This document shows positions 591-63,993 of a stretch of DNA of 64,000 nt, piece after piece. The notes under the pieces were generated by a model. That model ran no database searches. It worked only from the letters and a program-made list of their open reading frames with translations, and was not told the DNA's origin. The stretch comes from Eledone cirrhosa (Eukaryota), in assembly GCA_964016885.1 (NCBI GenBank), contig OZ024755.1:25110001-25174000 (forward strand). The letters run 5' to 3'. Position 1 is the stretch's first letter. Each line of letters opens with the position of its first letter. A program made the translations under genes and the position numbers.

Positions 591-720
591 GTAGGAGATG
601 AGTTGTATTGTAGTACAATAAAGCAATGCAGATATCGGATAAGTACCACTCTACAGTTTGTAGGACTGGAGTATAAATAATATATGAGATCAAAAGATGG
701 TTAAAAGAGTTTCATACTTG

Positions 721-870
721 AATAGTTCTCTATCCAAGACATGCAATCTCTGTTTATGTGAAAAATTTACCATTATATCTAATTTAGACTCTATAATAAA
801 TAGACTCACTGACTTGTTTTCTCTCTGCTTGCATAAATTCCACAGAACATTCCATAAAGTATACAGCTAA
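721..870 (+). pseudogene. C-terminal fragment of a PLE endonuclease domain
   Basis: Manual translation NSSLSKTCNLCLCEKFTIISNLDSIINRLTDLFSLCLHKFHRTFHKVYS*, resembling the CxLCxxEK..I...N.R..L...C.H end of PLE ORFs; absent from the ORF track. Confidence 0.7.
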
Positions 871-1800
871 TATCTAATACTTTACCAATTTAATATCCTT
901 TTCTCAAAGGCACATATATATATAGAAACATATATATTTCTTTAAAAATATACCCATCTTTCTACCTTATTTCAATGTTATTTATTATACATTATATAAT
1001 ACTAGTTACTCATTCTATATCACTCCTATTTATCACTTCCCTTTCTTTCTTTTTTCCTTTTTCTTTTAATTTCTAACCTCTAATCCGTACCTTTTCTTCC
1101 TAGATACTTCTGAATTCTCATTATTACCCACCACAATATATTCTTACTTCATAATATCACCTTGAAAAATGCTTCGTAAACATAAACATATTTTTGACGT
1201 TAGATTATTCATCCTCAATTCATTATTTTTTCTCCCTTTCATGCTCATCTAACTTATACATATTACACTTATTCATCTACTCTTCCACTTCTTTTCACAA
1301 TATATCCTTAATTACATTACTATTGTTATATTTTTATATTTTTTAATAATACATATCAACAATTTCTTTCCATCGCACATATTATTAAACCCTTAAATAT
1401 TATTCTTAATACATATTAACAATTTCTTTTCATCGCACATATTATTAAACCCTTCAATATACAAACCTTAATTTAACATTATTCTAAAATTTTTCTCTTC
1501 GTTAATTTTCAAATTCTTTTAATTTATATATCTTCCAACGGTTTTTTTAACCTCTCTATGTAAAACAATATATTTTTCTCAGTTATAAAAGCTATCTCTC
1601 TCTCTCTCTATCACCCATCTCTCCTCCTATCTCATCCTTCCTCATTATACTCCTCCCCCTCCACTTTTTACTCTCATCTCCTCCCCCCCCCCCCTCAATT
1701 GTTTTCCCAATATCACACATCAATCTAAAACTACTTTTCATATGTTGATTTAAAACTGCACTATTCACAAGTGTGTTTTAACCTTCATATCATGTCTCCC

Positions 1801-1874
1801 TATTTTATCTGATGAAAACGCAAATGTTATTGCATGATGATATTTTTTATTTTTGAAATGCACATTATAAAATA
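1801..1874 (+). ncRNA. Type I hammerhead ribozyme (slightly decayed)
   Basis: tattttat-CTGATGA-stem II-GAAA-tgcaca-TT-ataaaata; 8-bp stem I. Confidence 0.75.
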
Positions 1875-2355
1875 CATGGAACTCTTTTAACCATCTTTTG
1901 ATCTTATATATTATATATATATATATATATATGACCAAAGATTAATATGATTCATTGATTACTCAATGAATATAGTTTTACAATAGATTAAAAGCACTCT
2001 ACAGTTAGTTTTCTGGAGTTATTAATATTATTCAACATATTAATAAATGAAGACATCCACATAATCAAAATATATGTTTTATTGTATATATTTCGAAGGT
2101 ACTGTGTATATATATATATATATATATATATATATATATATGAATATGTACATGTATATATATATATATATATATATATATATATATATATATATATATG
2201 AATATATACATGTATATGAATATATATATGAATATATACATGTATATGAATATATATATGAATATATACATGTATATGAATATGTACATGTATATATATA
2301 TATATATTATTCAAAATATTAATAAATGAAGACATTCACATAATCAAAATATATG

Positions 2356-2417
2356 TTTTATTGTATATATTTCGAAGGTACTGTGCTGTTTTTCCAGTAC
2401 GTCCTCGTCAGATAAAA
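2356..2417 (-). ncRNA. Hammerhead motif (mirror copy of 2569-2630)
   Basis: Reverse complement of the + strand motif. Confidence 0.65.
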
Positions 2418-2568
2418 TGCATGAATTGATGTATGACAGACCTCAAAGGTCTTGATGGTTCAATTCCAGTATTGGCAGTACTGGAATTGAACCATTCAAT
2501 TCCAGTACTGCCAATACTGGAATTGAACCATCAAGACCTTTGAGGTCTGTCATACATCAATTCATGCA

Positions 2569-2630
2569 TTTTATCTGACGAGGACGTACTGGAAAAACAG
2601 CACAGTACCTTCGAAATATATACAATAAAA
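2569..2630 (+). ncRNA. Type I hammerhead motif with variant cleavage site
   Basis: ttttat-CTGACGA-ggacgtactg...cagtaccttc-GAAA-tatata-CA-ataaaa; CA where the relative at 37978 has TA. Confidence 0.65.
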
Positions 2631-2681
2631 CATATATTTTGATTATGTGAATGTCTTCATTTATTAATATTTTGAATAATA

Positions 2682-60775: not shown

Positions 60776-60980
60776 TTAGCAGTATCGGTAGAGCGTCGAA
60801 CAACATGCTTCGTGGTATAGACTTACGGCCCTTTACGTTCTGAATTCAAATACCGCCGAGGTTAGCTTTGCCATTCATCCCTACAGGCTCGATAAAATAA
60901 AGTAGCAGTAAAACATTGGGGTCGATTTAATCGATTATCCGCTTCCACAAAATTGCTGCTTTATGTCTAAATCAGAAATT
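60776..60980 (+). mobile_element. Older SINE type 1 relative
   Basis: tRNA-like head and tttgcc.ttcatcc...tcgataaaataaagta. Confidence 0.75.
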
Positions 60981-62159
60981 CTATTAGAGATACAACTTAT
61001 TTTATTCCTGCTTGCTTCGGGTGGACTATAAATCTGAACTAATTTTAATACTTATTTCTACACAATCCACGACACGGTCCTTCCTCCAACACAGTGGCCT
61101 GTACTCCCACAACTCCCTCCCAACACAATGGCTTGTAACATCTCAACACCTCCAACACAATATACTATACCCCAACATCACACACAAGATTATACCACCT
61201 CAACACACCAACAACACAATGAATTATACGAGTATACGTATCACCTCAATACACTCCCACACAGTGTCTGAACATCCCACAGACACGTGCACCTGTAACG
61301 TAGTTCTAAATAAAATTCAACGTGGTAATATGTAGTGTGGCTTCCCCTTTGAATTACAGGTACAACTCATTTGTCTTTCTAGCTGAGTGGATTGGACCAA
61401 CGTGAAAAAAGTGTCTTGTTCAAGGACACGATGCATTGCCCGGTCTGTAAATCGAACTCACGTCCTAAGAAAATATTGTACCAAGTACCCTAACCACTTA
61501 GCCAGGTGTTTGCACTGATATAGTTACGAGAAGTAATTTAATCTTTCCACTCCTGTAACGTAACATCCCATAAGTGCGGCTAAAATAGAGCTTATATAAA
61601 GCGTAAAGTCTTAATGAGTGGAATTGGTGATCCGATTAAAGCATTTCTTCCCCTAGTAACGTCATTTACAGCATGAATATCAATATTCTGTCGTTTCCCT
61701 CCACCTCCCTAAAACTACCACGCTTCGTGGCCGTGTCTGGAGAAGCTACTGGTTTGTAGTTAACTGTCTTTACTAAAGATATCCATCTCTAGTCTAGTGG
61801 GGAGCTCTTGGGAGGGGCTGGCGTGAAACAGCAGGTCCTTTGGAGGTTAATGAGAGCAAATTTAATAGATTCAACATCAAAGTGTTATCTGTTCCCTGTT
61901 GCTCAGTTATAATGACCAGACGAGGGAGGGGCCAGGACGTTAGAAACGTACTAAATGCCCTGTACTAACTTGTTAGATCACTTTACACTCGAGGATCGAA
62001 TCCCACAGCACCATTTAACCTTGTCACCTTAACACATACGAATTATATGTTGGATCAATACACACAGATGCATCTATCTGTGAACATTTGTGACTGGTTA
62101 ACAATATCAGAAATTCTAATAACTGAACTCGTATACATAGGAGGTACATGAAAATGTTG

Positions 62160-63005
62160 TGTTTTGGTGGTGGTGGGGGTGGGGGGGAAGCTGGTTGTGG
62201 AGGGGGGGTCTGGGTGGTGGTGGTGCTTGTTCCTTGTGTGGGTGGTGGTGGTGCTTGTTGCTTGTGTGGGTGGTGGTGGTGGTGGTGGTGCTTGTTCCTT
62301 GTGTGGGTGGTGGTGGTTATGGTGTAGTTGTTGGAGTTGGTGGTATGGATGGTAGTGATGATGATGGTGGTGGTGGTGGTGGTTGGTAGTGGTTGGTCTG
62401 GGTGGTGGTGGTGGTGGTGGTGGTGTGGTTGGTCTGGGTGGTGGTGGTGGTGGTGGTGGTGTGGTTGGTCTGGGTGGTGGTGGTAGTGATGATGATGGGG
62501 TCGGTGGATTTTGGTTGTGTGGGCGCGGTTGTGTGGTTGGTGGTCTGGGTGGTGGTGGTGGTGGTTGTTGGTTGTGTGGATGGTAGTGGTGGTGGTGTGG
62601 GTGTTAGTGGTGGTTATGGTGTAGTAGTAGTCGGAGTTGTTGGTGGTGGTGGTTTGTCGTGTGGATGGTGGTGTGGATGGTGGTGGTGGTGGTGTGGATG
62701 GTGTGGATGGTGGTGATGGTGGTGGTGGTGGTGGTGTAGTTGCCGGGGTTGGTGTAGTTGGTGGTGGTCGCAGTGGTGGTGGTGGGTGTGGGTGGTGGTG
62801 GTTGGTGTGGGTGGTGGTGTGGTTGGTAGTGTGGGTGGTGGTGGTGGTGTAGTTGCCGGGGTTGGTGTAGTTGGTGTGGGTGGTGGTGTGGTTGGTAGTG
62901 TGGATGATGATGGTGGTGGTGTAGATGGTGTTAATAGTGTAGTTGTTGTGGTTGATGGTGTAGATATTGCTCATGATGGTGTGGTTGTTGTTTTAGGTGG
63001 TGGTA
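62160..63005. repeat. (GGT)n-rich low-complexity region
   Basis: Direct inspection. Confidence 0.9.
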
Positions 63006-63082
63006 TGCTAGTTACTGGTAGAGGTGTACCAGTTTAAGCAGTTTAGTATCATATTAAATTAGTAAAGTATCATGGTTAATAC

Positions 63083-63275
63083 ATAATTGTTTCTACTTTT
63101 GGCACAAGGCCAGCAATTATCACAGTACATTACTGGTACTTTATTTTATCGACCCCGTAAAGATGAAAGGCAAAGTTAACCTCGGCGGGATTTGAACTCA
63201 GAATGGCATGGGCCGTAACTCTATGCGCCAATGCATGGCGTCCGACCCTCTACCGATACTGTCAATTCACCGCCC
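63083..63275 (-). mobile_element. Full-length SINE type 1 with ~14-bp TSD
   Basis: ggttaatacataat / ggttaacacataat. Confidence 0.9.
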
Positions 63276-63359
63276 CTGAGGTTAACACATAATACTAACG
63301 CCTATACAAAAGAAGAGGTGCACATATTCTAATGCATGTATCTGTGAACTCGCAAAAGT

Positions 63360-63757
63360 CGTGGCTTCGATTACTGGAATGGGCGGCACCTTGGTCCTTG
63401 AGCAAGACACTTTACTTCAGGTTGCCCTGATCTACTCAGAGAGGAAAAAACGAGACGTTCCTGTAATTCAAATGACCAGCATTGTCTCATCCGGTGTCAT
63501 GCTGAATCTCACTGAGAACGTTAACGCTACGCGTCTTTGGAATGCTCAGCCACTTGTACGCTAATTTCACAAGCAGGCTCTTCCTTTCAACGTATCAAAT
63601 GGAACATTCGGCTGTAACCGACGTCAAATCGGATCAGGTAGAAGGAGCAGCGTGAAATAATGTGTCTTGCTCAAGGACATAACGCATCGCCACGTCCAGG
63701 AATCAAACTTACGACCTCACGATTGTGAATCTAATTCTCATACCATTACGCGCCTTC
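63360..63757. mobile_element. Two CORE-like SINE pieces, tail-to-tail (+ ~63360-63620; - ~63625-63757)
   Basis: GTCCTTGAGCAAGACAC on both strands. Confidence 0.7.
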
Positions 63758-63799
63758 ACACACACACACATATATATATATATATATATATATATATAT

Positions 63800-63993
63800 A
63801 ACGAAGGAAATGTGGTAAGGAACCAGATGGACCATAACGCACCAAAGTACTCAATACTTAGGGTAGTAGAGTGGGTAATAGGAGTAAGTAAGACCCCGAC
63901 GGCTGAGCTCAAGCCGTTTCGACGGCTAATTCTGTACAGAATTAGCCGTCGAAACGGCTTGAGCTCAGCCGTCGGGGTCTTACTTACTCCTAT
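63800..63993 (-). mobile_element. Family A mini-PLE
   Basis: Tail + perfect ~58-bp fold-back centred near 63936. Confidence 0.85.

Follow-up and report, generated by a model that had tools for sequence, protein, structure and literature searches.

Penelope-like elements (PLEs) of the Hydra clade carry an endonuclease in which CxxC and CxH motifs surround conserved E and N residues, insert into (TA)n and contain hammerhead ribozymes, and PMC8557442 names the origin of the tandem and inverted structures of PLEs as an open problem. We analysed a window of 64,000 nucleotides from Eledone cirrhosa (contig OZ024755.1, positions 25,110,001 to 25,174,000), with a GC content of 33.6% and 381 (TA)n runs of at least 8 nt, in which short elements are bounded by (TA)n on both sides. 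These elements are very probably PLE copies, mostly of Hydra type, in a known layout, as the combination of an inverted pseudo-long terminal repeat (pLTR), a one-sided tail and (TA)n targeting is already published for PLEs. The finding is real, and we consider it likely that the window holds (TA)n-targeting, 5'-truncated PLE families whose copies would arise by priming from both sides of the target cut, with frequent fold-back of a complementary DNA (cDNA).

The layout was established by self-comparison and pairwise alignment of the window sequence. As claimed in the first-pass annotation, two element 3' ends point outward into (TA)n, which was found on both sides in all seven copies that it had listed by coordinates, and in nine of the ten copies of family A. 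The extra tail, put there at 55-95 nt, is confined to one side and measures 56-94 nt across families: 80 nt in A, 93 nt in B (copies at 591 and 56517), 94 nt in C, 87 nt in D, 78 nt in F and 56 nt in G. The tail-less arm ends, again as described, at a fixed family-specific site, where the natural sequence is TA, TAT or ATAT; the TA alternation at this end spans 2-4 nt, as determined by script in five of six families and by eye in family F. The 3' ends are fixed and the 5' truncation is variable, as judged from read depth and the comparison of family A copies, and both the inverted 5'-truncated copy and the one-sided tail, which are PLE features, are present in the window copies. The arm length held in common ranges from 0 to ~340 nt, and the turn centres vary among copies. 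A pLTR followed by its tail in natural order was seen, and no clear case of a direct tandem pLTR was found within the window. The six families are not independent of each other, as B, C and D have one hammerhead layout and A, B, C, D and F a common tail motif. Two earlier descriptions were also corrected: the copies at 55738-56198 and 33426-33525 have no inverted repeat, their tail-side arm being part of the tail only, and the element at 1933-2678 comprises three arms, the first and second of which are separated by ~200 nt of mirrored right flank.

Family A provides ten copies in 64 kb, nine of them two-ended (five with symmetric turns, three with unequal arms and one without overlap) and one single-armed, and all ten tails reach the identical end point. 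The unequal-arm copies, delimited by pairwise alignment, are A1 (3572-3732; common private variants, tail on the right), A2 (12577-12743; 2-nt microhomology) and A7 (41646-41748; ~11-nt arms). Self-comparison delimited A3, which consists of a tail on the reverse strand (17550-17631), an inverted stretch of ~176 nt of the right flank (17931-18110) placed at 17632-17803, also on the reverse strand, between tail and arm, and palindromic arms with a 1-nt spacer (17804-17930). It likewise revealed A5 (29658-29860), with a shortened tail, ~10 nt of mirrored flank and palindromic arms; A8 (42292-42488), a palindrome with a 1-nt spacer; and A10 (63801-63990), a perfect palindrome without spacer that bears private variants in both arms. 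A short symmetric turn forms A4 (20831-20966; self-comparison and pairwise alignment). In A6 (33426-33525), an arm is joined to a partial tail with 3-nt microhomology and no inverted repeat, and A9 (60360-60480, forward strand) is a single sense arm plus tail without inversion, both from self-comparison. The arms are identical over 27 of 27 positions in A1 and 57 of 57 in A10, both pairs carrying private variants, and the nearest other copy to A10 differs by 8.8%. A5 shows 5 differences between its arms in 60 positions, and both arms carry changes. Partner arms came from the same subfamily in all six family A copies compared.

Family C begins with a 94-nt tail and an 80-nt arm on the reverse strand (1933-2106), with 2 mismatches to the right arm in 82 positions. 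Inverted microsatellite flank from the right-hand side (2679 to ~2857; ~200 nt) follows at 2107-2307, also on the reverse strand and found by self-comparison, and then a palindrome with a 3-nt spacer (2308-2678), defined by an exact 267-nt match that runs into the flank and carrying in each arm a hammerhead in which C replaces U16.1. The centre of this palindrome (2455-2527) contains a nested 17-bp hairpin and reads like two fold-backs in succession. The family D palindrome (19417-19855) has ~175-nt arms, a 6-nt spacer, one hammerhead per arm and a tail at 19769-19855, and a D-like single arm with hammerhead and tail lies at 37956-38171 on the forward strand, both from self-comparison and the hammerhead descriptor. 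By self-comparison, a further D copy (55738-56198) holds only an inverted partial tail (to 55813), followed by a sense pLTR that is split by a high-copy repeat resembling a short interspersed element (SINE). This repeat, located at 55850-56050 and flanked there by short direct repeats, recurs in ~25 other places and is presumably a tRNA-derived SINE. Family E shows two outward ends without inverted repeat at 5903-6006 (self-comparison), with a second copy at 12762-12839. Family F (29340-29506; descriptor and pairwise alignment) has a hammerhead motif in its left arm and its tail at 29429-29506. Family G (37017-37866; pairwise alignment and descriptor) has a 56-nt tail, ~340-nt arms in common and a hammerhead in each; it lacks the common tail motif and is possibly a member of another PLE clade.

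Endonuclease-bearing PLEs encode a PLE-type reverse transcriptase and a GIY-YIG endonuclease in one reading frame, of which family B shows an endonuclease C-terminus only. The portion of the frame in which other Hydra-clade traits would be sought (RWK and DKT motifs, a CxCX5C linker, no CCHH, and the reverse transcriptase phylogeny) lies outside the window. In the copy at 591, a 93-nt tail on the reverse strand (591-683), identified by pairwise alignment and by the joint of pLTR end and tail in natural order in reads, runs with its 3' end into the left (TA)n. It is followed by a short inverted pLTR end (684-711, reverse strand; 41 of 44 positions matching 1876-1919), a GIY-YIG endonuclease C-terminus of Hydra type on the forward strand (712-870, ~52 codons) and, on the same strand, the 3' untranslated region and pLTR up to the fixed internal site (871-1911), which was located from the step in read depth and from joints. 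The translated frame at 712-870 terminates in CNLC..EK..N..CLH, which fits the CxxC..E..N..CxH ends of the Hydra clade as aligned by eye, and the tie between this copy and a PLE endonuclease made in the first-pass annotation thereby gained support. Within the supplement text of PMC8557442, all six matches to 'CNLCL' are Hydra endonuclease ends, and by-eye comparison found the Hydra feature (CxxC/CxH with conserved E and N) in family B only. No relative of the peptide was retrieved among 39 candidates, no Pfam family or atlas entry matched it, and no related loci were found in viral or metagenome contigs; two matches were rejected as unrelated repeat proteins. A minimal type I hammerhead motif occupies 1801-1874 on the forward strand, with cleavage predicted by the descriptor after 1866. 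Elsewhere, a solo B pLTR with hammerhead and without tail was found at 20659-20820 (forward strand; self-comparison and descriptor), and a diverged B-like tail in sense orientation lies immediately upstream, at 20504-20640. A further copy (56517-56671; pairwise alignment) combines a tail with a ~20-nt arm without microhomology. Its right arm starts at 56629 (compare 1866-1869), 2 nt past the predicted hammerhead cut, and self-cleaved RNA may sometimes serve as template.

Reads and contigs from public sequencing runs, aligned to positions 591-1911 only, extended the evidence on family B. Organisms A, B and C all contain tail and pLTR sequence in their reads or contigs; therefore, the family is not an assembly artefact. 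In X1, depth reached 0.68-0.90 million in the tail bins, 0.65-1.32 million in the pLTR bins and 29-64 thousand over the open reading frame (ORF) piece, figures that are depths and not copy numbers. In family B, most copies have the size of a pLTR, with their starts near 1716-1744. A precisely fixed 5' start at 1740 is less certain, as the reference differs just upstream and the intervening letters are known for two joints only. Raw reads linked pLTR end to tail in natural order in 1177 cases and passed from pLTR end into (TA)n in 220. Joint figures refer to 15 of the 53 joints found, the letters between the two parts not being known for the majority; in 12 of these 15, an inverted tail is joined to a sense pLTR, and in 11 of those 12 the tail is left at or before its boundary. 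A contig that matches 711-818 extends 138 nt further upstream, so the ORF naturally continues.

Hammerhead motifs were sought with a minimal type I descriptor, with 100 shuffles of the sequence as control. The final version, which supersedes two earlier ones (6 motifs against 0 and 5 against 0.1 in shuffles), yielded ten motifs, compared with a mean of 0.02 and a maximum of 1 in the shuffles; every one lies within an arm of family B, C, D, F or G. All are in sense orientation, toward the (TA)n-joined end and 27-214 nt upstream of (TA)n, and they occur singly or as inverted pairs, never as head-to-tail tandem units. Their stems vary between families yet still pair, and cleavage is predicted from the sequence. 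A search of the whole window against Rfam gave only microRNA look-alikes of repeats among the matches listed (150 of 391). A second common trait is the tail motif ACTCY-N6-22-TWGAGTRS, present in the tails of families A, B, C, D and F with 10 matches against 0.41 expected, for a pattern that was drawn up after the tails had been inspected. An unguided tail alignment did not cleanly recover the motif, and folding was unremarkable in six of seven tails (z 0.02 to -1.95), the remaining one reaching z -3.64. In three of six published Hydra consensi, a comparable motif was seen by eye, either after the pLTR end or at the element start, and ten-mer matches in the published supplement fell within Hydra sequences in three of five cases and elsewhere in two (PMC8557442). 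The motif is a candidate signal for the PLE protein; family A, without an ORF, is tied to PLEs mainly by it. Most families probably belong to the Hydra clade, and the hammerheads together with the Hydra-type peptide uphold the earlier view that the elements are of PLE origin, derived from RNA and distinct from MITEs (miniature inverted-repeat transposable elements).

In the proposed mechanism, the GIY-YIG endonuclease would cut both strands within (TA)n. Pairing of 2-4 nt between one 3' end and the internal UA site would prime a first cDNA, and the other 3' end would start at the tail end and give a second. If both cDNAs stopped early, they would be joined directly with 0-4 nt of microhomology, leaving a tail-only inversion or unequal arms. 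Often, one cDNA would fold back and copy itself, sometimes continuing 10-200 nt into the flank, before joining the other cDNA, which would produce a MITE-like palindrome. The tail-only inversions at 55738, 33426 and the read joints argue that the second cDNA is primed from the other side of the cut. Together with both-strand nicking and two start sites in vitro (PMC11167929), they favour priming from both sides at two fixed sites, as had been suggested. The accompanying idea that one primer sits at the RNA end found no support, as both sites are internal in the reported in vitro reaction (PMC11167929) and the tail corresponds to the start of the next tandem unit in PMC3846280; there, the tail runs on into the ORF start, so that the RNA does not have to end with it.

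The turns themselves point to the fold-back. Symmetric turns lie at differing centres, with spacers of 0, 1, 1, 1, 3 and 6 nt, and flank is mirrored inside three copies (~176 nt in A3, ~200 nt in C and ~10 nt in A5), always between the tail cDNA and the palindrome. Symmetric palindromes, common private variants and mirrored flank are not explained by two-sided priming on one RNA, and we therefore infer a fold-back, a step absent from the first-pass interpretation that would be needed for both the palindromes and the mirrored flank. Microhomology at window turns amounted to 0, 2, 3 and 2 nt by script and 2, 2 and 2 nt by eye, and to 0-4 nt in 12 read joints. Against a simple geometric null, the pooled mean was 1.84 compared with 0.8-1.0 expected (n=19, P 1e-4 to 4e-3). 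The earlier proposal that products are joined by microhomology is supported in part, the overlap being short (0-4 nt, mean 1.8).

Several points weigh against this interpretation. The start site described in vitro is not homologous to the target (PMC11167929), unlike the TA overlap here. The peptide at 712-870 has no true database match, its Hydra assignment being a by-eye motif comparison, and no full-length element with reverse transcriptase, endonuclease and these ends was retrieved in peptide and contig-collection searches. Family A has no ORF and only the 3' half of a hammerhead, and Rfam made no hammerhead call in two short test regions. With 15 of 53 joints covered and the intervening letters missing in most, the share of these joints and their microhomology are not firm, and the window-only microhomology set (n=7) is borderline (P 0.014-0.054). 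Finally, the fold-back arms of copy C show 0 of 267 differences, compared with 2 of 82 for the tail arm (P 0.055), a pattern compatible with a second template or a later event.

As an alternative, a published idea accepts the PLE origin and lets a single cDNA self-prime its inverted arm, with the tail resulting from endonuclease resolution and no second priming. Self-priming was proposed from palindromic junctions (PMC3846280), the tail has been attributed to endonuclease-mediated resolution (PMC8557442), and symmetric palindromes are common here. However, an inverted partial tail without inverted repeat, as at 55738, 33426 and the read joints, is impossible from one self-copying cDNA, and both strands were reported to be extended in vitro (PMC11167929), which makes this explanation unlikely.

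Palindromes could also have been formed by two-sided priming and the flank mirrored later, through extrusion, breakage to hairpin-capped ends and repair with inverted duplication. The closer resemblance of the copy C fold-back arms to each other than of either to the tail arm, and the start of the A3 duplication exactly at the palindrome base, agree with such a sequence of events. On the other hand, the A5 arms differ at both sides and the mirrored flank is nevertheless present, the tail cDNA is joined with 2-nt microhomology in all three flank-mirroring copies, as at ordinary turns, and insertion-time inverted duplication by self-annealing has been reported for L1 (10.1101/2024.12.14.628481). 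Later palindrome repair, to which we assign a low probability overall, is a live rival for the mirrored flank, with copy C leaning toward it and A5 against.

Overlapping arms might instead be copied from a pair of RNAs (dual priming) or from a tandem RNA that supplies two units, in place of a fold-back or alongside the two-sided priming and fold-back favoured here. A dimer is predicted for the PLE protein (PMC11167929), dual priming was proposed for L1 (PMC2837659), and unequal overlapping arms occur in A1, A2, A7, G and the copy at 591. Symmetric turns at varied centres and mirrored flank are not predicted by this scheme, and the partner arms agree in subfamily wherever compared, so we regard it as improbable. 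A DNA transposon origin, as MITEs or otherwise, with TA as the target and asymmetric terminal repeats, would account for the hairpin shape, small size, high copy number and TA flanks. This reading is largely refuted and very improbable: the arm length and centres vary between copies, hammerheads lie inside the arms, and none of the 86 window ORFs matches a transposase family, which is a weak test. Perfect palindromes next to microsatellites are hard to assemble and the arms of C and A10 are identical, but fold-back read or assembly artefacts are hardly conceivable given that arms differ in A3, A5, A8 and G, that tail joints lie at family-specific points and that family B ends and joints recur in independent runs.

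The favoured interpretation may be tentatively extended: two-sided priming at programmed sites with flank-copying fold-back could be the normal integration route of Hydra-type PLEs, and the 150-270-nt units of pLTR plus tail could be MITE-like non-autonomous parasites that make hairpins and inverted duplications genome-wide.

Additional features of the window were recorded. A second (TA)n-flanked PLE-like copy at 8688-9630 contains a GIY-YIG frame (8648-8971; Pfam E 0.0028, below the cut-off), which is 60-69% identical to P0003 and P0004 and is interrupted by stops further on; its endonuclease is not of Hydra type, and a degenerate hammerhead-like stretch was noted by eye near 9445. Whole or half hammerhead-like motifs near (TA)n were seen by eye at 8290-8340, 12450-12540, 12970-13020, 24900-24950, 38750-38800 and 42590-42630, possibly representing more PLE families, and the motif at 12470-12531 turns on an imperfect hairpin. 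Other inverted pairs lie at 28351-28611, 9941-10134 and 27210-27286, and the arms at 28351-28485 face a central (TA)n, which is the opposite arrangement. A repeat fragment with (TA)n and microsatellite forms three tandem units at 11640-12070, and two long TA-rich microsatellite blocks at 22208-24700 are inverted around a unique spacer of ~500 nt. Related short reading frames without Pfam match at 7023-7389, 27811-28143, 40858-41133, 44725-44996 and 47038-47316 are taken to be 3' ends of long interspersed elements.

With ten copies of family A in the 64 kb, the genome provides a very large natural collection of short insertions, in which arm ends, turns and mirrored flanks could decide between two-sided, dual and self-priming by counting alone. 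Repeat annotators could mislabel such copies as MITEs or unknown repeats. The openly accessible literature, as searched, yielded no description of twin priming for PLE tails, of flank mirrored between tail and arm or of a common tail motif, and a 22-nt family A motif gave 0 matches in three contig collections.

Among known systems, the Hydra-clade PLEs of PMC8557442 agree with the present elements in the CxxC/CxH motifs around E and N, the (TA)n target, the hammerhead near the 3' end, the inverted 5'-truncated copy, the tail at one end and a similar motif just past the pLTR end. They differ in tail length, stated there as 30-40 nt compared with 56-94 nt here, and almost every copy here has the size of a pLTR. 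A search of the supplement text for three DNA motifs, one set drawn from families A, B and D, gave no match, line breaks and cut runs limiting this test. The Anolis Poseidon PLE studied in vitro (PMC11167929) likewise cuts both strands at an AT-rich target, extends both, uses two start sites that bound the tail and accepts uncleaved RNA. Its start site shows no homology to the target, in contrast to the 2-4-nt TA overlap here, and the available text does not model inverted-arm formation. Penelope insertions of Adineta vaga (PMC3846280) are similar in the inverted pLTR, optional tail, turn palindromes ascribed to self-priming and solo pLTRs; they are described at low copy number with visible target duplications, and no flank mirrored between tail and arm is reported in the available text. 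Non-LTR (long terminal repeat) retrozymes (PMC7229834, 10.64898/2026.07.22.740005) are also short, non-coding, hammerhead-bearing and pLTR-related, but are described as head-to-tail tandem arrays with circular RNAs, as opposed to single inverted insertions in (TA)n. L1 twin priming, dual priming and inverted duplications (PMC2837659, 10.1101/2024.12.14.628481) resemble the present copies, as interpreted here, in that the opposite strand supplies a second primer, microhomology at the inner junction is weak and self-annealed ends make inverted duplications. The arrangement defined for L1 twin priming, with two non-overlapping inverted pieces of one RNA, fits 55738, 33426 and the read joints, but not the overlapping or palindromic copies. 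In L1, these products are described as departures from the usual route, the inner site being variable, whereas the present copies seem as a rule to use two fixed sites and mostly have overlapping arms.

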